Below, piece after piece: positions 22,480-60,428 of a stretch of 64,000 bases of DNA. This DNA comes from Sinimarinibacterium sp. Lineage in GTDB: Bacteria > Pseudomonadota > Gammaproteobacteria > Nevskiales > Nevskiaceae. The translations under genes were made by a program, and so were the position numbers. The notes under the pieces are model-generated. The model was not told the DNA's origin. It saw nothing but the letters and a program-made list of their open reading frames with translations, and ran no database searches. Position 1 is the stretch's first letter; every line of letters begins with the position of its first letter. The DNA lies in NCBI GenBank assembly GCA_041659605.1, contig JBAZXW010000012.1, forward strand, positions 138 through 64,137, given 5' to 3'.

Positions 22480-22527
22480 GTCAGCTCTCCTGTGTGTGTC
22501 TGTTGTACGCGCGACGGCCCGCCGACG

Positions 22528-22547
22528 AATCACGAATTCATGTGATT
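22528..22547. promoter_or_regulatory. 20-bp imperfect palindrome, copy 1 (candidate operator)
   Basis: AATCACGAATTCATGTGATT, about 50 bp upstream of the Calx-beta gene start. Confidence 0.6.
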
Positions 22548-22910
22548 GGGTGCAGCGAACAATCCGACGACCGCGCGGCCGATGGCGCGCGGGCTGCTGT
22601 CCTTCAACAGGCAGCCGTGCGCGCCGGCCGCCAGCGCCGCACGCTGGCGCGGGCAGCTGTCGAAAACGCTCATGACGATGATCCGCGTGCCCGCGCGCAG
22701 CGCTTCCGGGATCAGGTCGCCGCCGTCGCCGTCCGGCAGGCCGAGGTCGAGCAACAGCGCGTCGGGCGTCCGTGCGTCGAGCTCGGCGCGGGCCTGGGCA
22801 CAATTGCCGGCGGTGGCGAGCAGTTGCAGCCCGGGGTCCTCGGCAATCGCTGCCGCGAGGCGCTCGCGTGTGCGGGGATCGTCTTCGACCAGTAGGACGG
22901 TATAGGCCAT
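22530..22910 (-). CDS. Stand-alone REC domain protein (NarL-like, no HTH)
   Basis: VLLVEDD, LLLDLGLPDG, LLKD; clearly similar to the REC of 24819..25484. Confidence 0.75.
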   Translation of the reverse strand: MAYTVLLVEDDPRTRERLAAAIAEDPGLQLLATAGNCAQARAELDARTPDALLLDLGLPDGDGGDLIPEALRAGTRIIVMSVFDSCPRQRAALAAGAHGCLLKDSSPRAIGRAVVGLFAAPNHMNS

Positions 22911-22942
22911 GCGCGCAGTGTCCGCGCGCAGCCACGCCGCGT

Positions 22943-22962
22943 AATCACGAATTCATGTGATT
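22943..22962. promoter_or_regulatory. 20-bp imperfect palindrome, copy 2 (identical to copy 1)
   Basis: AATCACGAATTCATGTGATT, about 33 bp upstream of the REC-only gene start. Confidence 0.6.
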
Positions 22963-22971
22963 CGGGTCGGG

Positions 22972-24813: not shown

Positions 24814-24818
24814 GCTTG

Positions 24819-25484
24819 TTAGTTCCGCGGCCGCGTCAGCAGGCCGCGCTGCTCGGCCTCGCGCACCGCTTTGCCGCGCGAATTGACGGCAAGCTTGTCG
24901 TAGATGTGCTTGATGTGCGTGCCCACCGTATTGATGGAGATGAACAGCCGGGTGGCGATCTCGGCGTAGGAGCAGCCGTCTGCCACCAGTTGCAGGACGC
25001 CGATCTCGCGGGCGGAAAGCTCGTCGACGAGCTTCGCCGCGGGCATCGGCACCAACGCCGGCGCGGCCTGCAGGTGCTTGAGCAGGTAACGCGCGACCGC
25101 GGCACTGATCGGCGAGCCGCCGGCCAGCAGGTCCGCGATGGCGCGCCCGATCTCGCGCTCGCTGGCGTCCTTGAGCAGGTAGCCGCTGGCGCCGGCGCGG
25201 ATCGCCTCGACCACGTGCGCCTCGTCGCCGAACACGGTGATGACCATGCTTCGCGCTTGCGGATGCGCGGCGCATGTCTCGCGGATCAGGTCGGCGCCGG
25301 AGCCGTCCGGCAAACCGAGATCGGTAAGCAGGACATCTGGCGCGACGCGCACCAGCTGGGCGCGCGCTTCAGCACAGCTGCCAACGTCGGCGATGAGGCA
25401 GAGCGCCGGGTTGGCTGCGATCGCGCGCGCCAGCCGGGCGCGGGTTCGCGCATCGTCCTCGACCAGCAAGATCCGGTGCGGCAC
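24819..25484 (-). CDS. NarL/LuxR family response regulator
   Basis: REC plus LSAREIGVLQLVADGCSYAEIATRLFISINTVGTHIKHIYDKL HTH. Confidence 0.93.
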   Translation of the reverse strand: MPHRILLVEDDARTRARLARAIAANPALCLIADVGSCAEARAQLVRVAPDVLLTDLGLPDGSGADLIRETCAAHPQARSMVITVFGDEAHVVEAIRAGASGYLLKDASEREIGRAIADLLAGGSPISAAVARYLLKHLQAAPALVPMPAAKLVDELSAREIGVLQLVADGCSYAEIATRLFISINTVGTHIKHIYDKLAVNSRGKAVREAEQRGLLTRPRN

Positions 25485-33400: not shown

Positions 33401-33462
33401 GTAGCCCGGGTGAAACCCGGGGCGACGCCGGCGTGATCTTCCCCGGGCTGCGCCCGGGCTAC
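33401..33462. repeat. GTAG-type REP doublet, family B (copy 1)
   Basis: GTAGCCCGGGTGAAACCCGGGG...CCCCGGGCTGCGCCCGGGCTAC, inverted arms. Confidence 0.8.
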
Positions 33463-33522: not shown

Positions 33523-34737
33523 CTACTCGGTGAGCACGTGGAACTCGACGCGGCGGTTCAGGCCGCGGCCTTCTTCGGTCTCGTTGTCGGCGATCGGGTT
33601 CTCTTCGCCATGACCCACGCTTTCGAGGCGGTCGCCGGCGCTGCCGCGGTCGATCAGGTAGTTGCGCACGGATGCGGCGCGCGCCACCGACAGGTGCTTG
33701 TTGTACGCGTCGGTGCCCTTCGCGTCGGTATTGCCGATGATCTCCAGGCGCAGGTCCGGCTGGTTGCGCAGACCGATCGCGACACGGTCGAGCACGACGC
33801 GGGCGTCGCGCGTCAGCTTCGCCGAATCGAACTCGAAGTGCACCGCCTTGAGCACGATCACGGTCTGCTCTTCGGACACGCAGCCGGTGATGTCGACCTT
33901 GAACCCGGGCGGAGTATCCGGGCAGGCATCCTCAGCGTTGGCCACGCCATCGCCATCCTGGTCGACCGGGCAGCCCGTTGCGTCGACAGCGGTGCCCGCC
34001 GGCGTGGCGGGGCACTGGTCCGTGGTGTCAATGACGCCATCGCCGTCGGTGTCGGAAGTGGCCAGGACCGGCTGCGCCGGGCAGCCGGTGGCGTCGACAG
34101 CGGTGCCGAACGGCGTATCCGGACAGGCGTCCGCGGTGTCGAGAACGCCATCGTGATCGTCATCGATGTCGCCGTGACGCAGCACCTTCTCGGGTTCGGC
34201 GGCAACAGCGCCGAAGGCGTAGAGCAGGCCGAGGTTCAGGCGCGCGTCGTAGAGCACGTCCTCGTCGGGGTAGGTGTCGCTGTTGAAAATGGCGTAGTAA
34301 CGACCTTCGGCACGCAGCTGCAGGCGGTCGCTGCCGGCCTGGAAGCCGACGCCGGCGTCGACATACGGCGACAGCTCTTCCTCGATGCCGTAATCCTCCC
34401 AGAAGCTGCCGAGGCCGCCGAGGATGAACACGCCAAAGCGCGGCGATCCGCCCAGATAGCGGAGGTCGAGCCCGGCGCCGTAGCCGGCGTCGCGGCCGCT
34501 GCCGTCTTCCAGGTCGGTGCGCTGCCCGAACGCGTTGAGTTCCAGGCTCAGCCAGGGGTTCATCGGGGCGCCGTAGAGGATGTGCCAGCCGGGCCCGTTG
34601 TCGGTGCCGCGCACGCTGTCGGGCAGCACATAGCTGCCCATCACGCCGAGGTAGTTCGGCGGCGCATCGGCGGCTGCGCTGGCGCCGGACGCCAGGGCAA
34701 GTGCCAATGCCGCGGCTGCGCAGAAGATTCGCATCAT
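33523..34737 (-). CDS. OmpA family protein (beta-barrel, TSP3-like Ca-binding repeats, OmpA C-domain), paralogue 1
   Basis: Start MMRIFC; repeats DxDxDGVxDxxDxCPxTP; VHFEFDSAKL, GNTDAKG, LSVARAASV, NRRVEF. Confidence 0.92.
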   Translation of the reverse strand: MMRIFCAAAALALALASGASAAADAPPNYLGVMGSYVLPDSVRGTDNGPGWHILYGAPMNPWLSLELNAFGQRTDLEDGSGRDAGYGAGLDLRYLGGSPRFGVFILGGLGSFWEDYGIEEELSPYVDAGVGFQAGSDRLQLRAEGRYYAIFNSDTYPDEDVLYDARLNLGLLYAFGAVAAEPEKVLRHGDIDDDHDGVLDTADACPDTPFGTAVDATGCPAQPVLATSDTDGDGVIDTTDQCPATPAGTAVDATGCPVDQDGDGVANAEDACPDTPPGFKVDITGCVSEEQTVIVLKAVHFEFDSAKLTRDARVVLDRVAIGLRNQPDLRLEIIGNTDAKGTDAYNKHLSVARAASVRNYLIDRGSAGDRLESVGHGEENPIADNETEEGRGLNRRVEFHVLTE

Positions 34738-34797
34738 CGGGGTCCCCCTATTTGTTTGGACTGTTGCGGTCTGCGCGCTGCCGCGCAGAGCCGTGGG

Positions 34798-34820
34798 TGC
34801 CCATATATTACGCAACTTCA
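34798..34820 (-). promoter_or_regulatory. Conserved upstream element of ompA paralogue 1
   Basis: Minus strand TGAAGTTGCGTAATATATGGGCA; 22/23 identical to 36104..36126; contains a TAATAT -10-like hexamer. Confidence 0.6.
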
Positions 34821-34859
34821 CCCGGGCCGCGACCCGATGGCGCCGGCGGCGCCTGACCG

Positions 34860-36047
34860 CTATTCGGTCAGCACGCGGAATTCGACGCGCCGGTTCTGCG
34901 CCCGACCTTCCTCGGTGTCGTTGTCGGCGATCGGAAATTCCTCGCCGTGGCCGGCGGTTTCGAGCCGGCTGCCGGAGATGCCGCGATCGATCAGGTAATT
35001 GCGCACCGAAGCGGCGCGCGCGACCGACAGATGCCGGTTGTAGGCGTCGCTACCCTTGGAATCGGTGTTGCCGATGATCTCGACACGCAGGTTCGGCTGG
35101 TTGCGCAGGCCCTCGGCGACACGGTCGAGCACGACGCGCGCATCGCGCATCAGCACCGCCGAATCGAACTCGAAATGCACCGCCTTGAGCACGATGACCG
35201 TCTGCTCGCCGGACACGCAGCCGCTGGCATCGACCTTGAAGCCTGGCGGGGTCTGCGGACAGGCGTCCTGGGCATTGGGCACGCCGTCGCCGTCCTCGTC
35301 GAGCGGGCAGCCGTTGGCGTCGACCGCCGTGCCGGCCGGGGTGCCGGGGCACTGGTCGGTATCGTCGGCAACGCCATCGCCGTCGCTGTCTCCGGGGGCT
35401 GCAGCCTGTGCCGGGCAACCTTTCTCGTCCACCGGCACCGCGAACGGCGTATCGGGGCAGGCGTCGATGTCGTCGCTGACGCCGTCCTGGTCAAGATCGC
35501 CGATTGCCGGCGCAGTGCTGCCCAGGCTGTACTGCACGCCGAGGTTCACGCGGGCGTCGTAGACCACGTCGTCGTCGGGAAACAGATCGCGATTGAAGAT
35601 CGCGTAATAGCGCCCTTCGACGCGTCCCTTCAGTCGGCCGCTGCCGACCTGGAGGCCGAGGCCGACGTTGGCGAACGGCGAAAGCTGCTGATCGACGTAA
35701 ATGTCCTCCCAGATGCCGCCCAGACCGCCGAGCGCGAATACGCCGATCAGCGGCGAGCCGCGCAGATAGCGCAGGCCCAGGCCCAGGCCGTAGGCGACAT
35801 CGTGACCGCCGCCGCCTTCGAGTTCGGTACGCTGGCCGAAGGCGTCGAGTTCCATGCTCACGTGGTCGGCGACCGGCCGGCCGTAGACCAGCTGCCAGCC
35901 GGCGTCTTCCGCGGTGCCGCGGGCATCGTCGGGGATGACGTAACTGCCCATCGCGCTGACGTAATCATCCCGGTCTGCGGCCACCGCGGCCGTGCAGGAC
36001 AGGGCGGACAGCAGCAGCGCCAGCGCAGCGCGGGAGGCTCGGTTCAT
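34860..36047 (-). CDS. OmpA family protein, paralogue 2
   Basis: Same architecture and long stretches of identity with 33523..34737. Confidence 0.92.
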   Translation of the reverse strand: MNRASRAALALLLSALSCTAAVAADRDDYVSAMGSYVIPDDARGTAEDAGWQLVYGRPVADHVSMELDAFGQRTELEGGGGHDVAYGLGLGLRYLRGSPLIGVFALGGLGGIWEDIYVDQQLSPFANVGLGLQVGSGRLKGRVEGRYYAIFNRDLFPDDDVVYDARVNLGVQYSLGSTAPAIGDLDQDGVSDDIDACPDTPFAVPVDEKGCPAQAAAPGDSDGDGVADDTDQCPGTPAGTAVDANGCPLDEDGDGVPNAQDACPQTPPGFKVDASGCVSGEQTVIVLKAVHFEFDSAVLMRDARVVLDRVAEGLRNQPNLRVEIIGNTDSKGSDAYNRHLSVARAASVRNYLIDRGISGSRLETAGHGEEFPIADNDTEEGRAQNRRVEFRVLTE

Positions 36048-36161: not shown

Positions 36162-38444
36162 ATGCACCCCAGAAAATTCGCGTTCGCCCTGGCATTCCTG
36201 CTGACGATGCCGACTGCGCATGCGCTTGCCGATACACAGGCGTACCCCGCCGCAAAGCGCGGCACGGTGACGGACGACTATTTCGGCACCAAGGTCGCCG
36301 ATCCGTACCGTTGGCTCGAAGACGTCGACGCGCCGGACACCCGCGCCTGGGTCGAGGCGCAGAACGGGCTGAGCCTGCCGCTGCTGGCGCAGCTGCCGGA
36401 CCGCGAGCCGATCCGCCAGCGCCTGACCGAACTGTGGAATTACGAGCGTTACGGCGCGGTGCAGAAGGTGGCCGGGCGCTACTTCTACAGCAGGAACGAC
36501 GGCCTGCAGAACCAGTCCGTGCTCTATGTGCAGGATGGTTGGGACACTGCGCCGCGCGCGCTGCTCGACCCGAATCTGCTCGCCGCCGACGGCACCGTCG
36601 CACTGACCGACTACGAGGTTTCGCCGGATGGTCGCTGGCTGGCCTACGCGACCGCGGCCGCCGGTTCCGACTGGAACGAGTTTCGCGTGCGCGCCGTCGC
36701 CGACGGCAAGGACAACGATGACGTTCTGCGCCGCATCAAGTTTTCCAGCATCGCCTGGACAAAGGACGCGAAGGGTTTCTTCTATTCGCGTTATCCCAGT
36801 CCTGTGGGCAGTCCGGAGGGCGATGCGCCGAATGGCGCGAGCGCGGGCACCTTCGACGATCTGGCCAACCAGAAGCTCCACTACCACCGCGTTGGCACGC
36901 CGCAGAGCGACGACGTGCTGGTCTACGCGGTGCCCGAAGAACCGAAGTGGGGTTTCGTCCCGAAAGTCACCGACGACGGCCGCTATCTGATCATCACGAT
37001 CTGGCGCGGCTCGGCCAACGAGTACCGCGTCCATGTGAAGGATCTCGGCGACCCGCTCAAGCCGCGGCTCGATGCGCCGGCACTTAAGCTGGTCGACGAA
37101 TTCGCAGCCGAATATGCGCTGGCCGGCAGTGTCGGCTCGCGTCTGTATTTCCGCACCAACCTCGGCGTCGAACGCGGTCGCATCGTCGCGATTGATCTCG
37201 ACAAGCCCGCGCGCGAGCACTGGATCAGCGTCGTGCCGGAACAGGCCGACACGCTGCAGCACGCGCTGTTCGCAGGCGACGGCATCGTCGCGCTGTACAT
37301 GCACGACGCGACCTCGCGCCTGCGCCGCTACGCGCTCGACGGCAAGCCGGCGGGCGAGATCGCGCTGCCGGGCCTGGGCAGCGTGCCGGACTTGTCGCTG
37401 GGCGGCATCCAGATCAGCGGCAAGCCGGGCGCCGACGAACTGTTCTATGCATTCACCTCGTTCAGCCAGCCGGCAACCAATTACGTTTACGACCTGACAC
37501 GCGGGCAGGGGCGCGTGCTGCAGCCGCTGAAACTCAACTTCGATCCGGCCGACTACGTCACCGAGCAGGTGTTCTACCCGTCCGCGGACGGCACCAAGAT
37601 CCCGATGTTCATCACCTACCGCAAGGGTCTCAAGCGCGACAACGGCAATCCGACGCATCTCTACGGATACGGCGGTTTCAAGATCGCGCTGACGCCGACC
37701 TTTTCGGTGCCCAACCTCGTGTGGATGGAGCGCGGCGGTGTGTTCGCGCAGGCCAATCTGCGCGGCGGCGGCGAGTTCGGCCGCGCCTGGCACGAGGCCG
37801 GGACCAAGGAACGCAAGCAGAACGTGTTCGACGACTTCGCCGCGGCGGCGAAGTACCTGATCAGCAACGGCTGGACCGCGACGCGGCATCTGGCGATCAG
37901 CGGACGTTCGAACGGCGGTCTGCTGGTCGGGGCGACCCTGAACCAGCATCCGGGTCTGTTCGCTGCGGCGCTGCCGGCGGTCGGCGTGATGGACATGCTG
38001 CGCTACCACCGGTTCACCATCGGCTGGGCCTGGGCCGGCGACTACGGCACCTCGGAAACGAAGGAAGGCTTCGACTACCTGCGCAAGTACTCGCCGGTGC
38101 ACAACGTCAGGGCCGAAGAGCAGTACCCGGCGGTGCTGGTCACGACCGCCGATCACGACGACCGTGTCGTGCCGGGGCATTCGTACAAGTACACGGCTGC
38201 GCTGCAGGCGGCGCAGGCGGAGTTCCGGCGCAGCTGCAGCTCGATCAGGATCAACGAGGTCATGCGCGTGGGCCCCGGTGAACCCGATGCGGCGGATCTG
38301 GCCGCGCAACAGTGTGCCGACGAGCACCCGATCCTGATCCGCATCGACGTCAAGGCCGGCCACGGTGCCGGCAAGCCGATCGGCAAGCTGATCGAGGAAG
38401 AAGCCGACAAGCTCGCCTTCATGCGGCACTACACGGCGCGCTGA
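36162..38444 (+). CDS. Secreted prolyl oligopeptidase (S9A)
   Basis: Signal peptide; VADPYRWLE, GRSNGG (Ser), ADHDDRV (Asp), AGHGAGK (His). Confidence 0.95.
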   Translation: MHPRKFAFALAFLLTMPTAHALADTQAYPAAKRGTVTDDYFGTKVADPYRWLEDVDAPDTRAWVEAQNGLSLPLLAQLPDREPIRQRLTELWNYERYGAVQKVAGRYFYSRNDGLQNQSVLYVQDGWDTAPRALLDPNLLAADGTVALTDYEVSPDGRWLAYATAAAGSDWNEFRVRAVADGKDNDDVLRRIKFSSIAWTKDAKGFFYSRYPSPVGSPEGDAPNGASAGTFDDLANQKLHYHRVGTPQSDDVLVYAVPEEPKWGFVPKVTDDGRYLIITIWRGSANEYRVHVKDLGDPLKPRLDAPALKLVDEFAAEYALAGSVGSRLYFRTNLGVERGRIVAIDLDKPAREHWISVVPEQADTLQHALFAGDGIVALYMHDATSRLRRYALDGKPAGEIALPGLGSVPDLSLGGIQISGKPGADELFYAFTSFSQPATNYVYDLTRGQGRVLQPLKLNFDPADYVTEQVFYPSADGTKIPMFITYRKGLKRDNGNPTHLYGYGGFKIALTPTFSVPNLVWMERGGVFAQANLRGGGEFGRAWHEAGTKERKQNVFDDFAAAAKYLISNGWTATRHLAISGRSNGGLLVGATLNQHPGLFAAALPAVGVMDMLRYHRFTIGWAWAGDYGTSETKEGFDYLRKYSPVHNVRAEEQYPAVLVTTADHDDRVVPGHSYKYTAALQAAQAEFRRSCSSIRINEVMRVGPGEPDAADLAAQQCADEHPILIRIDVKAGHGAGKPIGKLIEEEADKLAFMRHYTAR

Positions 38445-38604
38445 TCGCGTTTCCCGAAGTATTTCTTATCCATAAGACGCTGCGCAGAACGGTCACCCCG
38501 GTTTCCTGAAAGGGCGTATGGTGCCTGCGGGCCGGTACGTGCCATCTCATCCATGCCGTCCGGCCTTGTGTGTTTCCTGTCGGAAAACAACAAAGGAGTC
38601 GGAC

Positions 38605-39057
38605 ATGCGAAATTTCACGAAGCTTGCGGCGTTGATTCTGGGATTTGCGTCCTTTGCCGTGCGCGCGGACCTGGAGCCGTGGAAGGACTACGACATCAGC
38701 GAGTCCGTGTGGAGTGTGACCACGGTCAGGGTCGACTCGAACATGGGCGACGCCTATCTCGAAGGCCTGCGCGAAACCTGGGTGCCGGGAAACGAGATTT
38801 CCAAGAAGCTCGGCCAGATCGAGGATTACTGGATCTACTCCAGTGACCTGCCGGACAGCGGCGACTTCAACCTCTTGCTGGTCGTCAAATTCAAGGACAC
38901 TGACGCGCTGGCGCCGAACAAGGCGCGCTACGACGCGTTCATGAAAGCCTATACCAAGGATCGCTCGGACAAGGCGACGGCGAAGGCGCAGAAGGACTAT
39001 CCGGGGATGCGCAAGCTGACCGGCAATTATCTGATGCGCGAGATCAAGTTCAAGTGA
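38605..39057 (+). CDS. Secreted hypothetical protein
   Basis: AAAGGAG RBS, signal peptide ending AVRA, host-like codon usage; no recognised domain. Confidence 0.75.
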   Translation: MRNFTKLAALILGFASFAVRADLEPWKDYDISESVWSVTTVRVDSNMGDAYLEGLRETWVPGNEISKKLGQIEDYWIYSSDLPDSGDFNLLLVVKFKDTDALAPNKARYDAFMKAYTKDRSDKATAKAQKDYPGMRKLTGNYLMREIKFK

Positions 39058-39080
39058 GCTGAACCCATCGCGGAGGTGGA

Positions 39081-39146
39081 GTAGCCCGGGTGAAACCCGG
39101 GGCAACATCGGCTGTCGCCCGAATCCCCGGGCTGCGCCCGGGCTAC
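39081..39146. repeat. GTAG-type REP doublet, family B (copy 2)
   Basis: Arms identical to 33401..33462 with a different spacer. Confidence 0.8.
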
Positions 39147-39185
39147 ACGCCGCATCCCCGCTGAGTCGGTCCGCTGGATTGGCCG
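39130..39185 (+). repeat. 56-bp direct repeat, left copy
   Basis: GGCTGCGCCCGGGCTACACGCCGCATCCCCGCTGAGTCGGTCCGCTGGATTGGCCG, identical to 41419..41474. Confidence 0.92.
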
Positions 39186-39395
39186 TAGGTACCGACGTGA
39201 TCGGTCCATGGCTGCGAACCGAAGCGGCACGGCTTCGTAGTGTCGTCCACCCCCGACAGCTCTCCCGTGGCGGTGGGGAGTAATACTCTTGGTAAACCCT
39301 CTCGTCCGTGGTGAGATACGCGTCGGTCGCTCGCGTGGGGCGCGGGCCAATCGAGCTGGTTGTTCCGGCTGAAAATTAGAGGCATTGGGGGGGCG

Positions 39396-41453
39396 ATGCG
39401 AACTGCACGGGCGATACTCGCCGCCGCGGCATACCTTGGCTTTTTCTGCAGTTGTTCGACATGGGCGCTTGAGCCTGGTGACTTTCGCGCACCAGCGCAG
39501 CAGTTCGACAGCGACTCCGGGCTGGACGTCATACGCCCGAACGTAGCGGGCTCGGCAACCGGAGACGTCGTCGTCGGCTGGGCAGAGTATCCGCGGCAGG
39601 ACTCTGGGGACTCGCCTGCTGGCTTCGTTCGCTTCTTCCGCGCCGACGGCAATCCGCGAGGTGAGCAGCAGCGTCTTTATTACGGCGCCCCCGATACGCT
39701 GTACTCGGAGACCGACGTTGGCATCGACGATTCCGGCGTCTCGACGGCGACCTGGATATCCACTTATATCGGCGGAGGCCAGCACGTCCCGACGTTGCGC
39801 TACCAACGCTTCACGCGTGACGGCGCCGCGCTGTCTCCGCCGGACAGCATCGATCTGAGGGATGCGGCCGTCAGTCCTCCGCATCTGGCCGTATCCGCTG
39901 GGGGTGACGCGATCATCGTGTGGCGGCAGACGTCCTTTTCGTCAAACATCCCGGAGATCCGAGCCTTCCGTCTCGACAAGAACGGCAACGTCGCCGGTGC
40001 GCCATTCACGATCGTCACCCTGCCCGCTGGATCGGCATATCCCTTGCCAGCAGTTGCGATGGACGCGACCGGCAACGCGGTCGTCGTCTGGCGGACGGGG
40101 AGCAACATCTATGCCCGACGCATCCGCGTGGATGGAACGACGAGCAGCATTGCGCAAGTCAACACGACCGAGGCCGACGCACGCGGCACGCCCGACGTCG
40201 GCGTGGACCGCGAAGGTGGTTTCACCGTGACGTGGATCGGTACGTCCGGTGAAAGTGTAATGCGCCGTCGCTACGGGCCGGGTGGCGGGGCGCTCGAAAC
40301 GGAAGTCGAAATCTTTGCCGGATTGTCGCTGTCCCCTTCGATCGGCACGGATGCGGATGGCGACACGGTGATTGCCTGGGGCGCCGACAGCTTCACGCGG
40401 CTTGTCGCACAGACGTTCGACGCGCAGGGTTTAGCCACAGCGCCTGCCGTAGTCGTCGCCGAGTCGGACCGCGAGGTTGTCGAACGACCGAGAGTTGCGG
40501 TCGACGGCGACGGCGATGCTGTGTTCGCCTGGCAATTCACGTTGCTTGGGGATAACGGCAGCGGAGTGCGAAACGGCTTCATTCGCAGGTCTGTCGGCCC
40601 CGAAAGTGTGGACCTTGCCGTCTCGGTCAGCGACGGACAAGCTGAAGCAGCTGCCGCCAGCGGATCGACGTACACCGTTTCGGTGCGGAACACGCACGCG
40701 GTCGCGTCGCCCGGCGTCGGCCAAGCCGATGGGGTGGTGCTCCAACTCGCTGCGCCGGCGGAACCGCAGGCCCTGTCCGGCACAGCGACCGACAGTTGGG
40801 AATGCGCGGGCACCCAGACGCTCGAATGTACCCTGGCTGAGCCCCTCGCTGCGGGCGCCGAAGCGCGCCTGACGTTGGTACTAACCCGGCCCGACGATGA
40901 TTGCCAGCAGGCTCAGACGACGGCATCGATCGCTGCTGCGCAGTTCGATGCCGGCACCGCGAACAACGCAGCGGTCGACACGACCCTGGTCGGTAAGCCC
41001 GGAACGATCGAATTCGACAGCTCCGCACTATCGGCTCGGGAAGATGTCTCGCCGTTGCAGATCGGCGTGCGCAGATCCGGCGGTTGCCTCGGCGATATTT
41101 CTGTCGCCTACGCGACCGAAGACGTTTCGACAGAGTCAGGGTTCGACTTCGTTGGCGGCGAAAGTTTCACGTTCCCCAGCGGCGAGACACAGCTCCGGTT
41201 GCCAATCGACATCGTGGACGACGCCGATGGAGAGGCCACCGAAACCTTCGACGTCGTGCTGACTTCGGCCTCGAACGGGGCCTCAGTCGGTGAGCAATCC
41301 CGAACAACCGTATCCATCATGGACGACGATGGCAGCGGCGGCGGTGCGTTCTCGTTGCATCTGCTTCTGTTCCTGGTGGGCGTCGCCCTCGTCCGACTGG
41401 ATGTTCGGACGTGCGGCTGGCTGCGCCCGGGCTACACGCCGCATCCCCGCTGA
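39396..41453 (+). CDS. Secreted multidomain surface protein: 7 propeller-like repeats, DUF11, Calx-beta, GlyGly-CTERM-like anchor
   Basis: ATG 39396 after a G-rich RBS; seven PxVxxDxxGxxxxxW repeats; VDLAVSVSD...YTVSVRN; TFPSGET...IVDDADGEATETF; GSGGGAFSLHLLLFLVGVALVR. Confidence 0.82.
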   Translation: MRTARAILAAAAYLGFFCSCSTWALEPGDFRAPAQQFDSDSGLDVIRPNVAGSATGDVVVGWAEYPRQDSGDSPAGFVRFFRADGNPRGEQQRLYYGAPDTLYSETDVGIDDSGVSTATWISTYIGGGQHVPTLRYQRFTRDGAALSPPDSIDLRDAAVSPPHLAVSAGGDAIIVWRQTSFSSNIPEIRAFRLDKNGNVAGAPFTIVTLPAGSAYPLPAVAMDATGNAVVVWRTGSNIYARRIRVDGTTSSIAQVNTTEADARGTPDVGVDREGGFTVTWIGTSGESVMRRRYGPGGGALETEVEIFAGLSLSPSIGTDADGDTVIAWGADSFTRLVAQTFDAQGLATAPAVVVAESDREVVERPRVAVDGDGDAVFAWQFTLLGDNGSGVRNGFIRRSVGPESVDLAVSVSDGQAEAAAASGSTYTVSVRNTHAVASPGVGQADGVVLQLAAPAEPQALSGTATDSWECAGTQTLECTLAEPLAAGAEARLTLVLTRPDDDCQQAQTTASIAAAQFDAGTANNAAVDTTLVGKPGTIEFDSSALSAREDVSPLQIGVRRSGGCLGDISVAYATEDVSTESGFDFVGGESFTFPSGETQLRLPIDIVDDADGEATETFDVVLTSASNGASVGEQSRTTVSIMDDDGSGGGAFSLHLLLFLVGVALVRLDVRTCGWLRPGYTPHPR

Positions 41454-41474
41454 GTCGGTCCGCTGGATTGGCCG
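41419..41474 (+). repeat. 56-bp direct repeat, right copy
   Basis: Identical to 39130..39185; supplies the stop codon of the upstream gene. Confidence 0.92.
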
Positions 41475-41509
41475 CAGCGACATCAGTAAACGACGGTTCA
41501 GCCTTGCTG

Positions 41510-41558
41510 CGTACGCTGGCGTATGGATAGAGTGATTCCGCCCATACGCCTGCGCATG
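41510..41558. promoter_or_regulatory. Two CATACGC-N2-GCGTATG-like palindromes (candidate TetR operators)
   Basis: CGTACGCTGGCGTATG (41510..41525) and CATACGCCTGCGCATG (41543..41558) just upstream of the TetR start. Confidence 0.6.
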
Positions 41559-41565
41559 TCGTTGC

Positions 41566-42180
41566 ATGAAGCCTGCTGCTCCCGCTACTGAAGCCCGCCA
41601 GAACCTGACCGTCGAGGATTGGGCGCGCGCCGCGCTCGACACGATGGCCGGCGGTGGCCTTGATGCGGTCGCGGTGGAGCCGCTGGCGCGCCAGCTCGGC
41701 GTCACCAAGGGCAGCTTCTACTGGCACTTTGCCAATCGCGAAGCGCTGCTGCGCGCGGCGCTGGAGCTGTGGGAGCGGCGCGAGACTGCGGACGTGCTTG
41801 CGCGCGTCGGCGACGAAGCCGATCCCTACGAGCGCATCGTCAAGGTCTTCAAGGAAGCCAACGCCGGATACCGCTCCGGGCGTCTGTATCTGGCGATCGC
41901 CGCCGCCGAGGACCATCCCTTGGTCAGCGAGTTTGTGCGCCGCGTGTCGGAACGGCGCATGGCCTATCTGGTCGAATGTTACGAGGCGCTCGGATTCGAC
42001 CCCGCGCGCGCGCAGCATTGGGCGCGCTTCGCCTATGCCACTTTCATGGGCAATCTGCAGATCCGCCGCGACACGCCGCAGCTGATGCCCACCGGCGCGC
42101 CGTTCAATGAATATCTGAAGTTGATGATCAAGACGCTCATTCCGCGCGACGGCTTAGAACGCCCGCCCGCGGTGAGCTGA
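41566..42180 (+). CDS. TetR/AcrR family transcriptional regulator
   Basis: AVAVEPLARQLGVTKGSFYWHF HTH. Confidence 0.93.
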   Translation: MKPAAPATEARQNLTVEDWARAALDTMAGGGLDAVAVEPLARQLGVTKGSFYWHFANREALLRAALELWERRETADVLARVGDEADPYERIVKVFKEANAGYRSGRLYLAIAAAEDHPLVSEFVRRVSERRMAYLVECYEALGFDPARAQHWARFAYATFMGNLQIRRDTPQLMPTGAPFNEYLKLMIKTLIPRDGLERPPAVS

Positions 42181-42199: not shown

Positions 42200-44689
42200 A
42201 TGTCCACCCTCATCCTGACCCTGATCGCCATCGCCTCTGGCTGGTGCCTGGCCTTCATCGGTGCGCCGCTGATCGCCTGGACCGCGGCCGCCGGCGCCTT
42301 GCTGTTCGGCCTCAAGGTCGCCGGCAGCATCGGCACCACCGCATTCGTCGTGGCGGGCGGCATTTACCTTGTGCTCGCGTTGCTGCTGAACCTGCGCCCG
42401 CTGCGTCGCGCGCTCTTGACCAGGCCCTTGTTCGGCGCGTTCAAGAAGGTACTGCCGGAGATGTCGTCGACCGAGCGCGAGGCGCTCGAAGCCGGCGACA
42501 CCTGGTGGGAGGCCGAGATGTTCCGCGGTCGACCCGACTGGGCCAAGCTGCTCGCGTTCAAGTACACGCCATTGACAGCGGAGGAGCAGTCCTTCCTCGA
42601 CAACGAGTGCGAGGAACTGTGCAAGCTCTGCGACGACTGGAAGATCGAGTTCGAGGACAAGGATCTGTCCCCCGAGGTCTGGGCCTACATCCGCCAGCAC
42701 AAGTTCCTCGCGATGCTGATCAAGAAGGAATACGGCGGTCTCGGCTTCTCGGCGAACGCGCAGTCGGCGGTCGTCACCAAGCTCGCGACCAAGTCGATCT
42801 CGATGGCCGTCACGGTGATGGTGCCGAACTCGCTCGGCCCCGGTGAGCTCTTGATGTACTACGGCACCGACGCGCAGAAGAAGCAGTGGCTGCCGGGCCT
42901 GGTGTCGGGCAAGGAGATTCCGTGCTTCGGCCTGACCGGGCCGGAAGTCGGCTCGGACGCGACCGCGATGCCGGACCTGGGCGTGGTCTGCTACGGCGAG
43001 CACGACGGCAACAAGGTGCTCGGCATCAAGCTGAACTTCTCGAAGCGTTACATCACCCTGGCGCCGATCGCGACGGTCGTCGGCCTCGCGTTCAAGCTGC
43101 GCGATCCGGACGGCCTGCTCGGCGACAAGTCGAAGTCGGCCAACAATGGCGAGTGGGGCATCACCTGCGCGCTGGTCCCGGCCGGGCACCCCGGCGTGCA
43201 GATCGGCCGCCGCCACTATCCGGGCGCGGCCTTCCACAACGGCACGATCCACGGCCGCGACGTGTTCATTCCGGTCGACTGGATCATCGGCGGCCCGGCG
43301 ATGGCCGGCAAAGGCTGGCGCATGCTGGTCGAGTGCCTGTCCGCGGGGCGCGGCATCTCGTTGCCGGCGCTGGCGACCGCGGCCGGCCAGACCGCGTATC
43401 GCATGATCGGCATCTACGGGCGCTTCCGCCGCCAGTTCAAGGTCGCGATCGGCAAGTTCGAGGGCGTGCAGGAAGCCACCGGCCGCATTGCCGGTTTCGG
43501 CTACACGCTCGAGGCGATGCGCATCATGACCGCGTCCGCGGTCGACCACTGCGCGCCGTCGGTGGTCACCGCGATTGCCAAGTACCACATGACCGAGCTG
43601 ATGCGGAAAGTCGTTTCCGACAGCATGGACGTGATGGCCGGCAAGGCGATCCAGCAGGGGCCGCGCAATTTCGTCGCAACGGCCTACAAGACGACGCCGG
43701 TGGCGATCACCGTCGAAGGCGCGAACATCCTCACACGCAACCTGATGATCTTCGGCCAGGGCGCAATCCGCTGCCACGAATATGTGTTCCCGGAGATGGA
43801 GGCGGCGCGCGAGAACGACCTCGTCGCCTTCGACCGGCTGCTGTTCGGGCACATCGGTTTCTCGATCAACCGCGCCGTGCGCGCGCTGACGCTCGGCCTG
43901 ACCGGCGCGCGCCTGGCGAAATCGCCGGTCGCCGGCGAACTTGCTGCCTACTTCCGCGACCTGGAGCGTTTCTCCGCCGCGCTGGCGTTCTGCTCCGACC
44001 TGACGATGGGGGTGCTCGGCGGCAAGCTCAAGTTCATGGAGCGCCTGTCGGCGCGTCTGGGCGATGCGCTGAGCCAGCTCTACATCGCGTCCTGCGTGGC
44101 CAAGTACTACCTCGAAGGCTCGAAGAGCGAGGCCGAGCTCGCGCACGCGCGCTGGGCGCTCGACCATGCCTTGAGCGAGGTCGCCAAGGCCTTCGACGAG
44201 TTCCTGCACAACTTTCCGGTGGCCTGGGCCCGCGTCGTCATGCGCGCGGTCGTGTTCCCGCTCGGCAACCACTTCCGCCCGGTATCGGATCAGGTCAATG
44301 CCCGCGTCGCCGATCTGCTGCTCGAGCAGACCGACGTGCGCGAGCGCCTGTCGTGGCTGGTGTTCAAGAACGGCGGCGCACATGATGCGGTTGGCCGCAT
44401 GGAACATGCGTGGGCGGTATCGCACGAAACCGAAGGCGCCTACCTCAAGTTCTATCGCCTGGCCGCGAACGACGAACTTGCCGGCGACACCGTCGCCGAG
44501 CGCCTGCGCGATGCGGTCACCCGCAAGCTGATGACGCGCGACGAAGCCGACCAGGCCGAGGCCTACGACAAGCTGCGCTACGACGTGATCCTCACCGACG
44601 ACTTCAGCCAGGCCTACATCGCCGGCGACTACGGCGCCGACTGCGCCGAAGTGATCGAGATGGCCACCGTGCGCGCGCGCGTCGCCTGA
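42200..44689 (+). CDS. fadE: Long-chain acyl-CoA dehydrogenase (FadE type, N-terminal TM, DUF1974-like C-terminus)
   Basis: VMVPNSLGPGELL, FGLTGPEVGSDA, ITVEGANILTR, IFGQGAIRCH. Confidence 0.9.
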   Translation: MSTLILTLIAIASGWCLAFIGAPLIAWTAAAGALLFGLKVAGSIGTTAFVVAGGIYLVLALLLNLRPLRRALLTRPLFGAFKKVLPEMSSTEREALEAGDTWWEAEMFRGRPDWAKLLAFKYTPLTAEEQSFLDNECEELCKLCDDWKIEFEDKDLSPEVWAYIRQHKFLAMLIKKEYGGLGFSANAQSAVVTKLATKSISMAVTVMVPNSLGPGELLMYYGTDAQKKQWLPGLVSGKEIPCFGLTGPEVGSDATAMPDLGVVCYGEHDGNKVLGIKLNFSKRYITLAPIATVVGLAFKLRDPDGLLGDKSKSANNGEWGITCALVPAGHPGVQIGRRHYPGAAFHNGTIHGRDVFIPVDWIIGGPAMAGKGWRMLVECLSAGRGISLPALATAAGQTAYRMIGIYGRFRRQFKVAIGKFEGVQEATGRIAGFGYTLEAMRIMTASAVDHCAPSVVTAIAKYHMTELMRKVVSDSMDVMAGKAIQQGPRNFVATAYKTTPVAITVEGANILTRNLMIFGQGAIRCHEYVFPEMEAARENDLVAFDRLLFGHIGFSINRAVRALTLGLTGARLAKSPVAGELAAYFRDLERFSAALAFCSDLTMGVLGGKLKFMERLSARLGDALSQLYIASCVAKYYLEGSKSEAELAHARWALDHALSEVAKAFDEFLHNFPVAWARVVMRAVVFPLGNHFRPVSDQVNARVADLLLEQTDVRERLSWLVFKNGGAHDAVGRMEHAWAVSHETEGAYLKFYRLAANDELAGDTVAERLRDAVTRKLMTRDEADQAEAYDKLRYDVILTDDFSQAYIAGDYGADCAEVIEMATVRARVA

Positions 44690-54098: not shown

Positions 54099-54521
54099 AT
54101 GGCACTTGCAGAACCCGCACTACCGCTTCCTGATCTCTTCGCGCGCTATCACGTCGGCTGGGAAACCAAAAACCCGAATCTGATCGCGTCGCTCCATTCG
54201 AACGACACGATCTTCCATCTTCATGACGGTTCCGCTGCGGTCCATGGCCGCGACGCGTTGCGGCAGAATTGCATCGACCTGTTCGCGCGCTTCGATTTCA
54301 CGCACGAGGTGGGCCGCAGACTCTATGGCGATGATCACTGGGTCGTCGAATGGACGATGGTTCTGGCGCTCAAGGAACCGGGGGGCGCGCCGTTCACGGC
54401 CAGGGTCGAAATGCTCGATGTGGTGACAGTCAGTCCCCGCGGCGAGGTCACGCGCAAGGACGTCTACATGAATGGCGCCCAGGCGCAGGCCGCGTTCGCC
54501 CGAGCCGGGATCCAGCGTTAG
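54099..54521 (+). CDS. NTF2/SnoaL-like protein
   Basis: LHSNDTIFH, VHGRDALR, WVVEWTM, GEVTRKDVY. Confidence 0.8.
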   Translation: MALAEPALPLPDLFARYHVGWETKNPNLIASLHSNDTIFHLHDGSAAVHGRDALRQNCIDLFARFDFTHEVGRRLYGDDHWVVEWTMVLALKEPGGAPFTARVEMLDVVTVSPRGEVTRKDVYMNGAQAQAAFARAGIQR

Positions 54522-54622
54522 CGGATGGACTGGCGCTCGCCGCCATGTTGAGCGGCACTTCAGTCGATCCCGTCGGGCGCAGGCGTGCTACCGGTGGTTT
54601 GCTGCAAACGATCGGTTTGCCG

Positions 54623-55330
54623 ATGATGGCGATCATGCCGGCTCCCGTATCTCCCTTCACCAACACGATACTGCCCATCAAGGTCAGACGCCTCGCGGCG
54701 CATCCGAACGTTGTCATGGCCGTGCTGGCCGGACGGACGGGCCCGATCATCGTCGAGCAAGATGGGGTGTGCGTGACCGGCGATGTCGTGCTGGTCCGGC
54801 CGGGAGTCGTACACGGCGTCCTGTGCGGGGAACGTGGCGCGGACGTCCTCTACCTCAACGGGCTGACATTTCCCTTCGAGGCACCGTTGGCAGTGCCGCT
54901 CAAGGGCATCCTTGAACAGCTGGCCCACCGATCATTGGGTTGCGATCCGGGCGCATCAGAGGAATTGCGGGCAAGGCTGGCGTTCGCGACCGGTCCGCTT
55001 CCGACGAAGATTGCCGACATCGTAAGGGCCACGCAGGCCGATCCCATGCGGCGCGTGACGCAGAACGAGCTGGCGCGATATCTCGACATGGAGCGGACGC
55101 GGGCGCTGCGCTGTTTCAAGGCGGCGACGGGGCTGACATTTCGCCAGTTCAAGCGGTGGTCCGGCCTGCAGCATGCCGCGCAACAAATGGCTCGGCGCAC
55201 GCTCGTGCGGACAGCGGCGATGGATGCCGGTTTCGCAGATACCGCACATCTTTCGCGCGTGTTCAGGAGCACATTCGGGGTTTCGCCCGGCATGGCGATT
55301 GCCGAGCTGGACCATCTGGAAAGTGAGTAG
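54623..55330 (+). CDS. AraC family transcriptional regulator
   Basis: Cupin-like VLVRPGVVH; HTH AAMDAGFADTAHLSRVFRSTFG; start uncertain. Confidence 0.82.
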   Translation: MMAIMPAPVSPFTNTILPIKVRRLAAHPNVVMAVLAGRTGPIIVEQDGVCVTGDVVLVRPGVVHGVLCGERGADVLYLNGLTFPFEAPLAVPLKGILEQLAHRSLGCDPGASEELRARLAFATGPLPTKIADIVRATQADPMRRVTQNELARYLDMERTRALRCFKAATGLTFRQFKRWSGLQHAAQQMARRTLVRTAAMDAGFADTAHLSRVFRSTFGVSPGMAIAELDHLESE

Positions 55331-55385
55331 CGGGATTCGACCCGGCGCGGACATTCCGAGCAGCAGAGATTGGGCGCGCTCCGTA

Positions 55386-56720
55386 TCAGGACTTCACGGA
55401 GGACAGCTGCCATTGGCCGGGGATGCCCTTGAGCTCACGTGATCCGCGATCCTCGAAGGCAATGCCCGATCCGGCAACGAGATCCTTGACGATGCTGGAA
55501 ACGAATATTTCATTCGGCTGCGCCTGCGCGGCGATACGCGCCGCGATGTGCACAGTGATTCCGCCGAGCTTCGTATCGATGACCTGGCATTCCCCGGTAT
55601 GGGCGCCTGCGCGAACGTCGACACCCAGCTTGCGTGCGCCATCCCGAATCGCCTCGGTACAGCGGATCGCGCGCGCGGGTCCGTCGAACGCGGCGAACAG
55701 CCCGTCTCCCGCCGTGTCCAGTTCGCGTCCGCGAAATCGCTGCAACTCAGATCGGGCCAGCGCGTAAAAGCGCTCGAGAACCTCGCGCCAACGAGAATCA
55801 CCGAACTCTGCGGCCAGCGCCGTCGATCCTGCGATGTCGGCAAACAGAATCGTCGCCAGGACCCGATCGGACGCGTGACCGTGCAGCTCGCCCGTCAGGA
55901 ACATCTCGATCGCATCAAGCTCCGCTTCGGGAGCAATCCAGAAGAAATGATCGGGGCTCGAAAACTGGACCAGCTTTGCACCCCGGATGTTCTGCGCAAG
56001 GTGGCGGCCGCCCTGTATGGGCAAAATCCGGTCCCGGTCACGGTGAAGGACAAGCGTTGGAACAGTGATTGCCGGCAACACGGCCCGCACGTCGATCTCG
56101 TAGACCATTCGCATGAGCGCCACCGCTGCTCCTGGGCTAGAGGCGCGCCGTTGAAAGCGTGCCCAGCGCTCGCGCGCACTTGCGTCATTTGCCTGTGATG
56201 GCGCGAACGCACCCAGAAGGACCCCGGTTCCCCAGCCGCTTTCCATGCGATCGAGGAGCGCTTGCTTCTGCTCAGACGTGCCACCCCAAGGGTAGTCTTC
56301 CGACCAGGCCCCGCGAGCAAACGTGTTGACCAGCACCAGCGCCGAGGTGCGTTCCGGATAGGTCGCCGCAAACAGCAGGCACATCGGGCCACCCTCGGAG
56401 GCGCCGATCAGCGTGGCGCGCCGCGAGCCGGCCGCATCCATCACGGCGCGCACGTCGTCCATGCGTTCCTCCAGCGTCGGCAGGTCCTGAGCGGGCACAG
56501 CATCGGACATGCCCGTTCCGCGCTTGTCGAAGATGATCAGTCGCGCGAACGATGCAAGGCGTCTGAAATACCGGTTCATCTGCGGGTCTTCCCACGCGTA
56601 TTCCACATGGGAAACAAACCCTGGCACGAACACGACGTCGACGGGCCCAGCCCCGGTCACCTGGTAGGCGATGTTGTAGCGCCCGCTTTTTGCGTAGCGC
56701 GTTTCCGGGTGCGACAACAT
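55386..56720 (-). CDS. Alpha/beta hydrolase fused to a class III nucleotide cyclase (LipJ-like)
   Basis: FDKRGTGMSD, GASEGG, DHF; TILFADIAGST, DTAGDG, GAHTGE, VHIAARI. Confidence 0.92.
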   Translation of the reverse strand: MLSHPETRYAKSGRYNIAYQVTGAGPVDVVFVPGFVSHVEYAWEDPQMNRYFRRLASFARLIIFDKRGTGMSDAVPAQDLPTLEERMDDVRAVMDAAGSRRATLIGASEGGPMCLLFAATYPERTSALVLVNTFARGAWSEDYPWGGTSEQKQALLDRMESGWGTGVLLGAFAPSQANDASARERWARFQRRASSPGAAVALMRMVYEIDVRAVLPAITVPTLVLHRDRDRILPIQGGRHLAQNIRGAKLVQFSSPDHFFWIAPEAELDAIEMFLTGELHGHASDRVLATILFADIAGSTALAAEFGDSRWREVLERFYALARSELQRFRGRELDTAGDGLFAAFDGPARAIRCTEAIRDGARKLGVDVRAGAHTGECQVIDTKLGGITVHIAARIAAQAQPNEIFVSSIVKDLVAGSGIAFEDRGSRELKGIPGQWQLSSVKS

Positions 56721-57068
56721 AACGTCAGTCCTCAGCCAATATTTGGCGCAGCGTCACGGGCGATCGTGATGCGCGATCAACAGTCATCCGCACCATTGCA
56801 TATTTGCGGGCCTGACGCTCCGAAAATAGCGTATCGACCTGAGTACCTGATGATCGACCGATGTCCGCTCCTGGCCGGGCAGAGACCGTCATCGACCCTG
56901 AGGCGACATTCGCTCAACTCCAAAGCAGCCAGTCGAACGGGGCGAAAGCGGCCAATGGCACGGCCGGTGGTACTTTTTTGACCGCGATGCGCTGTCGACC
57001 CCATCTTCTCGTGCTCGGTGCGGTAGATGACAGATGCAAGCCCACGCCTGCCTCCACAATAGGAGGTC

Positions 57069-58250: not shown

Positions 58251-58322
58251 CCGTCCTGAATCTCACCGACCGTGCTTTGAACCTTGCGGGCGATGCAGGC
58301 TGACTAGATTGCTCATACTTGC

Positions 58323-58336
58323 GTGTGCTGACGCAC
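58323..58336. promoter_or_regulatory. GTGYG-N4-CGCAC palindrome, copy 1
   Basis: GTGTGCTGACGCAC followed by CGA, upstream of the AI-2E gene. Confidence 0.55.
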
Positions 58337-59602: not shown

Positions 59603-59630
59603 CCCGATGCGCAGGTCGAAGGAGCGACGG

Positions 59631-60399: not shown

Positions 60400-60428
60400 C
60401 CTGCGTCCGCGGCCGAAGGAGTTCTCAT

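Follow-up and report, generated by a model that had tools for sequence, protein, structure and literature searches.

The locus described here lies in a 64-kb stretch of DNA from Sinimarinibacterium sp. (contig JBAZXW010000012.1), hereafter called the window, and centers on a surface-protein gene enclosed by two copies of a short direct repeat, R. The left conserved flank is a gene for an S9 prolyl oligopeptidase (36162..38444, + strand), which shows 66 to 75% amino acid identity to the gene upstream of tetR in four relatives (L054, L058, L064, and L067). The right conserved flank is formed by the genes for a tetR-family regulator (41566-42180, + strand) and a FadE-type acyl-CoA dehydrogenase (42200-44689, + strand), with amino acid identities in relatives of 82 to 88% and 81 to 88%, respectively. 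Between these flanks lie, from left to right, p179 (38518..39057, + strand), a GTAG-type, REPIN-like REP doublet (39081..39146), the left copy of the repeat (R1, 39130..39185, + strand), inserted DNA of 2233 bp (39186..41418, + strand), and the right copy (R2, 41419..41474, + strand).

p179 is a 179-aa ORF, probably encoding a secreted protein of ~150 aa that starts at MRNFTKL, and gives the spacer another accessory gene apart from the one in the insert. Its homologues (53 loci in one-genome-per-species GTDB contigs) are 48 to 69% identical, belong to other gammaproteobacteria, and share no synteny, which made them useless for locating an empty site; searches against Pfam, NCBIfam, and PADLOC gave no match.

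REP doublets and repeat R

The left unit of the doublet (GTAGCCCGGGTGAAACCCGGGG, 39081-39102) is on the + strand and the right unit (GTAGCCCGGGCGCAGCCCGGGG, 39125-39146) on the − strand, and together they form a single long hairpin (−24.2 kcal/mol, z = −3.96). The 5' GTAG, the GC-rich hairpin, the inverted pairing, and the occurrence of two intergenic doublets within 64 kb identify the elements as GTAG-type REPs/REPINs; Rfam returned just one sub-threshold miRNA match to the hairpin, which is meaningless. The only other doublet in the window (33401-33462) is near-identical, likewise forms a long hairpin (z = −3.4), and carries no insertion.

A preliminary description of this DNA reported a perfect 56-bp direct repeat that starts inside a REP arm and consists of that right arm plus about 39 bp of unique sequence, and both statements hold. 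R is present as two identical direct copies of 56 nt (39130-39185 and 41419-41474), 2289 nt apart from start to start, and the match reaches 59 nt if one mismatch is allowed. R opens with 17 nt (GGCTGCGCCCGGGCTAC) that make up the GTAG-proximal part of the doublet's right unit. The 39-nt non-REP part has two exact copies in the window and none in 100 shuffles, and the 64 kb contain no other long perfect noncoding direct repeat. Apart from the half REP, no inverted-repeat or core-site structure was found inside R, and an exact 23-nt part of R had no match in JGI metagenome contigs.

The two copies differ in their surroundings. The 5' side of R1 is native and completes the intact REP, and its 3' side adjoins the insert. 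The 5' side of R2 is a truncated half REP without a hairpin partner, and 41380-41440 folds no more stably than shuffles do (z = −0.46). The 3' side of R2 is native: its last 9 nt run unbroken into a motif (41466..41482, + strand; GATTGGCCG within R2, continued by CAGCGACA in the downstream DNA) that five Nevskiales relatives have conserved upstream of tetR; this was seen when the reconstructed empty site was aligned (MAFFT) with the orthologous spacers of L058, L063, L054, L064, and L066. The same motif is cut at the junction between R1 and the insert. As judged from these contexts, R is lineage-specific host sequence.

The inserted DNA and its gene

The insert comprises 210 bp of upstream sequence and a gene that lacks its last few codons and its stop. 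The corresponding ORF (39396..41453, + strand) encodes a secreted protein of 685 aa, which comprises a signal peptide, a repeat region of about 400 aa showing a D-G-x-x-V-V-W-like motif, DUF11/CLIPPER and Calx-beta domains, and a GlyGly-CTERM-like tail. Pfam matches were obtained for Calx-beta (4.8e-12) and DUF11 (3e-07), and PDB matches covered the Calx-beta part only. These domains are the basis for calling the protein a putative adhesin. The window encodes a second Calx-beta protein (21127-22935), which has nothing but this domain in common with the first and was rejected as a paralogue.

GlyGly-CTERM signals, which are sorted by rhombosortase, consist of a Gly/Ser-rich motif, a hydrophobic helix, and basic residues (PMC6219818, PMC3237569). 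The tail of the 685-aa protein reads GSGGGAFS, then LHLLLFLVGVALV (hydrophobic helix), then a stretch beginning RLDVR, and the 19 aa after the helix are encoded in part by R2. This layout recurs in all full-length homologues, where GGG precedes a helix and basic residues at the C terminus; the sole NCBIfam GlyGly-CTERM match, SVAGG, is weak (26.6 bits against a cut-off of 150). The ORF lacks a stop codon of its own and is closed by R2, which contains its final 35 nt with the TGA at 41451-41453 and supplies the last 11 residues and the stop. A tryptophan codon spans the junction, with T in the insert and GG in R2, and the protein ends RTCG followed by WLRPGYTPHPR, compared to RTARWRLH in the homologue P0289. 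The insert ends about four codons (within about 15 nt) short of the native end of the gene.

Homologues are 46 to 57% identical to the protein, the closest full-length one at 57%. Those with the same architecture, in Sinimarinibacterium flocculans, Sinimarinibacterium sp. CAU 1509, and a JGI contig, occupy three different loci, where neither flanking repeats nor REPs were found. Among JGI metagenome contigs the protein had remote matches only (25 to 38% identity). The GC3 of the enclosed ORF (0.73) is the lowest of the first 41 ORFs (median, 0.87), in agreement with the more A/T-rich codon usage first noted for this gene. Its GC3, its absence from relatives, and the presence of homologues elsewhere make the insert look foreign and horizontally acquired; it is a recent acquisition of 2.2 kb with one surface-protein gene.

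The claim that the unit lacks a recombinase was also correct. Its only ORF is the one with DUF11 and Calx-beta domains, and no recombinase, transposase, integrase, or RAYT gene was found among the about 48 ORFs of the 64-kb window. There were no terminal inverted repeats in any of the 57 cyclic permutations (best terminal match, 12/20; longest exact run, 5 nt), no integron core or inverse-core sites in or around either copy of R, and nothing above shuffles in a promoter and terminator scan. Derivation from a plasmid was considered and rejected; searches gave no DNA match and only remote protein matches. The junctions may show 2 nt of microhomology, as judged from the sequence of this locus. 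A small hairpin is located at 41390-41409, and the right end of the insert lies 13 nt beyond it. With 210 bp of upstream sequence at one end and a gene that breaks off before its native stop at the other, the insert is an arbitrary-looking fragment.

These features set the insert apart from several known systems. Like the target-site duplications of transposable elements, R represents host DNA repeated directly on both sides of the insert, but 56 bp compares with the usual 2 to 14 bp, and the insert has arbitrary-looking ends and a gene without a stop; a DDE transposon or IS was rejected for the length of the duplication and for the lack of terminal inverted repeats and transposase. Integron gene cassettes are likewise single-gene units without their own recombinase, with the stop codon near or inside the recombination site. 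In contrast to these cassettes, the locus has no attC structure, GTTRRRY/RYYYAAC core sites, or intI, and 210 bp of upstream sequence belong to the unit itself. An integron cassette was therefore rejected, no core or inverse-core sites being found in or around either copy of R and no integrase in the window. An XerCD-type element was rejected because its defining features are missing, dif having been compared by eye with the gammaproteobacterial consensus.

The empty site and support for the junctions

The expectation that relatives would show an empty site was confirmed at genus or family distance (66 to 75% amino acid identity of the S9 peptidase), the comparison covering relatives of that distance. 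In four of them (L054, L058, L059, and L064) the S9 peptidase gene is followed by a spacer of ~200 to 240 bp and then tetR, and this order, with a spacer of ~200 bp, is that of the three closest relatives. Both the insert and p179 are missing between the S9 peptidase gene and tetR in L054, L058, and L064, in which the former gene directly precedes the latter, and in L058 a GTAG palindromic doublet likewise stands at the start of the spacer. In L067 the spacer is occupied by other inserted DNA (Abi_alpha and a 432-aa protein), and no repeat accompanies it. Because R is native on both outer sides and the relatives have the order S9 peptidase, spacer, tetR, the ancestral site consisted of the REP doublet, 39 nt, and then the tetR upstream region, with a single R that was duplicated by the insertion. 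The converse arrangement, in which R2 is ancestral and the DNA from p179 to the insert arrived as one block, was rejected, as the block would have to bring an exact copy of host-specific sequence.

Closer relatives were sought in public assemblies and metagenomes. Exact look-ups with the proteins encoded in the window gave no entry in public assemblies. One metagenome (X2) holds the strain, with four near-identical contigs in 19 kb, which is too sparse for evidence on the empty site. Four others (X7 to X10) contain relatives with ~90% nucleotide identity that have p179; no cassette was found in them at ≥88% identity, among contigs of 150 to 700 nt of which none spans the site. A soil metagenome (X3) yielded only two near-identical contigs (99.3%) over 19 kb, both of them inside the insert (p about 0.014).

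The junctions were checked independently in the Logan k=31 contigs of the source groundwater metagenome run (X1), where all four recur. R is one unbranched 56-nt unitig, and contigs break exactly at R: the contig over 38021-39159 stops 30 nt into R, as expected at a k=31 branch point, and a single contig (depth 11.5) spans 39156-41448. Depths are 9.8 for the left flank, 20.9 for R, 11.5 for the insert, and 9.2 for the right flank. R is present at two copies per genome and is not an assembler artefact, an explanation that the preliminary description had put forward for checking. A mis-threaded graph, in which the empty site with one R is chromosomal and the 2.3-kb unit comes from a separate circle or a different organism, would nevertheless leave the same words at k=31, A-R-B-R-C being equivalent to A-R-C plus a B-R circle, and the Logan contigs cannot separate the two. 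We regard this as scarcely credible: the depths fit one insert per chromosome, and a free circle would reach equal abundance only by coincidence. Without a replication gene, a circle of 2.3 kb is also an implausible replicon, ordinary reads should easily span a 56-bp repeat, and the source contig, 109 kb long on record, threads through R.

Origin of the insertion

Circle integration classically produces identical direct repeats around a unit such as this one with a single gene, and the preliminary description proposed a circular cassette that integrated at a REP site. A circle of 2289 bp (the insert and one R) would have integrated within R, either through a site-specific recombinase encoded elsewhere or by a Campbell-type single crossover, and could excise again. 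Several observations are compatible with this. First, the stop codon lies in R, so that the circle too would hold a complete ORF. Second, the gene family occupies different loci in different genomes. Third, the pair of soil contigs inside the insert hints at the gene elsewhere without these flanks. However, R combines REP sequence with tetR upstream sequence orthologous to relatives' spacers and is found as host DNA in both of its outer contexts. Because R is host-specific, a foreign circle could not bring it, and R is a target duplication rather than an element-borne att site. A circle with R requires an earlier excision from the same site, which explains the maintenance of the arrangement but not its origin. 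For Campbell-type integration the homology-insert-homology product with identical copies is as expected, but the circle must carry exactly these 56 host bp, and no source is evident. With no recombinase in the window, no inverted-repeat or core-site structure in R beyond half a REP, no such flanks at the homologues, and no match of the 23-nt part of R in JGI metagenome contigs, we consider integration of a circle rather unlikely.

The same features bear on the comparison with genomic islands and islets bounded by attL and attR (tyrosine-recombinase elements and integrase-less, CIME-type ones). These are also foreign segments between identical direct repeats of tens of base pairs, are excisable in principle, and are expected to leave one repeat copy at the empty site. 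Here, the direct repeats are present, but no recombinase gene occurs in the unit or elsewhere among the window's ~48 ORFs, the target is neither a tRNA gene nor the 3' end of a gene, the unit is one truncated gene, and the repeat is lineage-specific intergenic DNA that an incoming element could not carry. The further suggestion of an excisable unit stands in principle, given the identical 56-bp copies. No att-like features were found.

The position of R next to a REP doublet raises the question of whether REPs were involved. According to a passage in PMC3733652 that cites Tobes and Pareja 2006, some IS elements target REPs. A REP-associated Y1 (HUH) transposase (RAYT) of the genome may have acted through a nick in the REP hairpin to capture or insert the cargo, in which case REPs would be entry points for genes; the left edge of the duplication is inside the stem of the right REP unit, and the right end of the insert lies shortly past a small hairpin. 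Transposition of the IS200/IS605 type, catalyzed by Y1 enzymes, needs hairpins at both ends and produces no target duplication. R2 has only half a REP, with a fold no better than shuffles, and a 56-bp duplication is present; an IS200/IS605-like or RAYT-mobilized element (REPIN/PATE type) was rejected on these grounds. In addition, the break is within the stem and on its GTAG-distal side rather than at the GTAG flank, the window contains no RAYT gene, and the second doublet is unoccupied. Pseudomonas fluorescens shows the opposite tendency, its mobile elements and strain-specific genes falling in REP deserts (PMC3390384). Capture by a RAYT is thus improbable.

The idea of REPs as landing pads for swapping adhesins was not sustained and rests on one case. 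R touches the REP at one edge only, and its other edge cuts a conserved non-REP motif; the doublet at 33401-33462 is empty, the homologues at three loci have no repeats or REPs, and the L067 spacer received its insertion without a repeat. The broader proposition, that REP hairpins (via RAYT or hairpin-provoked breaks) are recurrent entry points in Nevskiales for single-gene cargo with a long host duplication, making recombinase-free, precisely excisable surface-protein cassettes, is very improbable. If the pattern recurred genome-wide, it would give REPs a role in gene capture that is unassigned in the present literature, for which one case on one metagenome-assembled contig is insufficient.

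We favor, with a probability of about one-half, an illegitimate insertion with target duplication: R would be host target DNA that was duplicated when about 2.23 kb of foreign DNA inserted once between the REP doublet and the region upstream of tetR-fadE. We infer that the event was not site-specific and involved no dedicated cassette recombinase. Two routes are conceivable. Two breaks on opposite strands, 56 bp apart, could have been filled in and joined to a linear fragment, or a replication template switch could have left the chromosome after 39185 and returned at 39130. In either case, one break would lie in the stem of the REP hairpin, which is of a kind known to promote recombination, and the other in the conserved motif upstream of tetR, which the duplication would restore. 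REP sequences are said to have been found at the join points of tandem duplications by Shyamala and colleagues in 1990. The locus resembles such REP/BIME hot spots in that one breakpoint is in a REP hairpin stem, REPs being documented for both insertion and illegitimate joining. It differs from them in that something other than an IS was inserted, the second breakpoint is outside any REP, and 56 bp rather than a large tandem segment is duplicated.

Some points count against illegitimate insertion. To our knowledge, 56 bp is far above the duplications usual in bacterial transposition or end joining, and we know of no well-described bacterial precedent. The right end of the insert, within about 15 nt of the native end of the gene, is a tight fit for a random break, and a recombinase encoded outside the 64-kb window may have acted in trans.

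If illegitimate insertion is correct, the locus would be a clear-cut natural case of a route, seldom documented, by which a single foreign gene enters a chromosome without mobile-element machinery. The foreign gene was completed by host sequence, its stop codon coming from the REP-adjacent repeat. The duplication would have kept the upstream region of the neighboring tetR, and it would have left the acquired gene precisely deletable, as the identical copies of R should allow exact, RecA-dependent loss of the insert.

The repeat and its ancestral locus

The 56-bp perfect direct repeat seen in the preliminary description is present in two identical copies, R1 (39130-39185) and R2 (41419-41474; GGCTGCGCCCGGGCTACACGCCGCATCCCCGCTGAGTCGGTCCGCTGGATTGGCCG in both), which lie 2289 nt apart and bracket an insert of 2233 bp (39186-41418) containing one gene. 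Within the window, the 39-nt non-REP part of the repeat is confined to these two copies, and it occurs in 0 of 100 shuffles; no other long perfect noncoding direct repeat was found in the 64 kb. The repeat starts within a REP arm, as had been proposed: the first 17 nt of R1 are part of the right unit of a GTAG-type REP doublet (39081-39146), which is near-identical to a second doublet (33401-33462). Both doublets form long hairpin folds (z = -4.0 and -3.4); the R2 region has a half REP only and folds no better than shuffles.

The window originates from a groundwater metagenome, and 99% of its sampled words are present in the source run (X1). An assembly artefact was assessed with Logan's independent k=31 contigs of this run, which break exactly where a 56-nt repeat predicts (one ends at 39159, one covers 39156-41448, and one starts at 41445). 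The repeat is one unbranched 56-nt unitig with a depth of 20.9, and depths are 9.8, 11.5, and 9.2 for the left flank, insert, and right flank, respectively. The contig breaks and depths together indicate that all four junctions exist in reads and that the insert is present at about one copy per chromosome. As 31-nt words are too short to thread a 56-nt repeat, an empty site together with a separate 2.3-kb circle of equal abundance would formally fit these data, but it is improbable, since the abundances would have to match by chance and the 2.3-kb replicon would have no replication gene.

TetR, encoded to the right of the insert, is 82 to 88% identical to homologues in Sinimarinibacterium, Solimonas, and Fontimonas, and these protein identities assign the organism to the Nevskiales. 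The closest available contigs (L054, L058/L059, and L064) carry the S9 prolyl oligopeptidase gene, then a spacer of ∼200 to 240 bp, and then tetR-fadE (identities of 86 to 88% for TetR, 68 to 75% for S9, and, where on the contig [L058 and L059], 85 to 88% for FadE), a state without the insert, as was to be looked for in relatives. The upstream order patatin, OmpA, S9 is common to the window, L058, and L064. OmpA-family genes with thrombospondin type 3 repeats form a tandem pair in the window (33523-36047; paralogues, 81% identical over 300 nt), while L064 has one copy and L058 two. At the position in L058 orthologous to 39081-39146, there is a GTAG-ended palindromic doublet of different sequence (7747-7817; GTAGGCTGGGAT...), whose GTAG includes the stop codon TAG of the S9 gene; REP-type elements are found at one orthologous site with sequences differing between lineages.

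Alignment of the reconstructed empty site (39058-39185 plus 41475-41575) to the orthologous spacers of five relatives showed conservation of the motif GATTG[GA]C..GCGACA, which spans the end of the repeat and the DNA after R2. The R1-insert junction interrupts this motif and R2 restores it. The join downstream of R2 is ancestral, because the motif straddles it. So is the join between the left flank and R1, since with R1 the REP doublet is whole and has the same form as that at 33401-33462. The ancestral state was therefore the REP doublet, 39 nt, and the tetR upstream region, with one copy of the repeat; 56 bp of host DNA was duplicated by the insertion. Two palindromes upstream of tetR (41508-41558; form ATACGC-N3-GCGTATGG / CCATACGCCTGCGCATG), kept in all five aligned relatives, are probably TetR operators of the tetR-fadE unit.

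The inserted gene

The inserted open reading frame (ORF) (39396-41453; 685 amino acids [aa]) encodes a signal peptide, ∼400 aa of repeats, DUF11/CLIPPER and Calx-beta domains, and the tail GSGGGAFS-LHLLLFLVGVALV-RLDVR. In its three-part arrangement, this tail resembles GlyGly-CTERM sorting signals (PMC6219818, PMC3237569), although no curated model matched at threshold. A second Calx-beta protein (602 aa; 21127-22935, minus strand) is unrelated to the inserted gene product outside Calx-beta. A 47-nt direct repeat (22504-22550 and 22919-22965; 81% identical), containing the palindrome ATCACGAATTCATGTGATT, has one copy inside the 5′ part of this second ORF and the other across its start and the short spacer before a histidine kinase gene (22972-25275), and is possibly a regulator binding site.

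The codon usage of the inserted gene is more A/T rich, as first noticed, its GC3 of 0.73 being the lowest of the first 41 ORFs (median, 0.87). Elsewhere, a run of ORFs at 54099-63640 has a GC3 of 0.73 to 0.77 (versus ∼0.87 outside it) and may reflect acquisition of a larger region. Among its products are a SnoaL-like protein, a protein in which an alpha/beta-hydrolase is fused with an adenylate/guanylate cyclase domain, a further hydrolase, a regulator of the Crp type, and a GSDH/NHL protein.

The insert carries 210 bp of the gene's own upstream DNA and no stop codon for its ORF. The protein instead ends in RTCG, a W whose codon (T|GG) spans the junction, and LRPGYTPHPR*, which is read from R2. 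The homologue P0289 ends RTARWRLH*, indicating that the fragment was cut ∼4 codons before the native end. There is no terminator-like structure from the end of the ORF to tetR (41454-41565), as the half REP is unable to form its hairpin, and transcription of the inserted gene may consequently read into tetR-fadE.

An exhaustive HMMER search found proteins of the same architecture (∼670 aa), with identities to the inserted protein of 57% (P0289; JGI), 46% (both Sinimarinibacterium sp. CAU 1509 [P0279] and S. flocculans [P0283]), and 36% (P0178). The homologues occupy three mutually different loci, all other than that of the insert, and no long flanking repeats or REPs were found at these three. 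Across 19 kb, soil metagenome X3 has just two full-length contigs that are near-identical (99.3%), and both lie within the insert (P ∼0.014 under uniform coverage); 9% of the insert's words are present in X3/X4, which are not among the listed holders of the 9.5-kb right flank. These contigs and words suggest, if weakly, that the gene also occurs without these flanks, consistent with recent transfer.

Origin of the insertion

The inserted fragment is foreign, its ends look arbitrary, and a duplication of host sequence brackets it. The structure resembles an attL/attR-bounded islet, the product of Campbell integration, and the target duplication of a transposon, but it lacks the hallmarks of each family that was open to testing here. 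The cassette was correctly described as lacking a recombinase, and no recombinase, transposase, or RAYT gene is encoded anywhere in the 64-kb window; nor is there an element-borne att site. No terminal inverted repeats were found in any of 57 cyclic permutations of the unit, there are no integron core sites, and the duplication is not of short, fixed length. A duplication of 56 bp is unusually long for bacteria.

Integration of a circular cassette at a REP site, as first proposed, predicts the same product. For this, the circle must already contain 56 bp of intergenic DNA belonging to this lineage; the model can therefore account for an excised unit integrating again, but not for how the arrangement first arose. 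The data do not match a RAYT-type mechanism: Y1 transposition requires a hairpin at each end and leaves no duplication, but here a 56-bp duplication is present and R2 has only half a REP.

A single illegitimate insertion is the simplest account. Two breaks 56 bp apart, one on each strand, could have undergone fill-in and joining to a linear piece of DNA; alternatively, replication could have switched template and come back 56 bp behind its departure point. One break would lie in the REP hairpin stem. REPs are known recombinogenic sites, and Shyamala et al. (1990) reportedly found them at duplication join points. PMC3733652 cites the insertion of IS elements into REPs. The structure is best classified as one more single gene acquired horizontally and inserted next to a REP through illegitimate recombination, with a target duplication of unusual length. 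The broader suggestion that REPs act as landing pads for adhesin swapping draws on one case and is unsupported by the second doublet, the homologue loci, or the other insertion in the same spacer.

A variable spacer

That other insertion, in the relative L067 (5653-8001; ENA contig k141_704535), differs in content: its two genes encode a protein of 432 aa and an abortive-infection-like protein (Abi_alpha), and it has no flanking repeats. The window itself has another accessory insertion besides the cassette, a 179-aa ORF (38518-39057; region 38445-39080; GC1, 0.52; GC3, 0.80) located after the stop codon of the S9 gene and before the REP doublet. Its product, predicted to be a secreted protein of ∼150 aa, has no family match, and the ORF is absent from L054, L058, and L064. 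Homologues in GTDB genome contigs (48 to 69% identical) are from Steroidobacteraceae/Woeseiaceae-type MAGs without shared synteny; the ORF lies beside S9 in relatives of ∼90% nucleotide identity in soil metagenomes X7 to X10. The spacer between the S9 peptidase gene and tetR is variable, and within this clade it appears to receive accessory genes recurrently.
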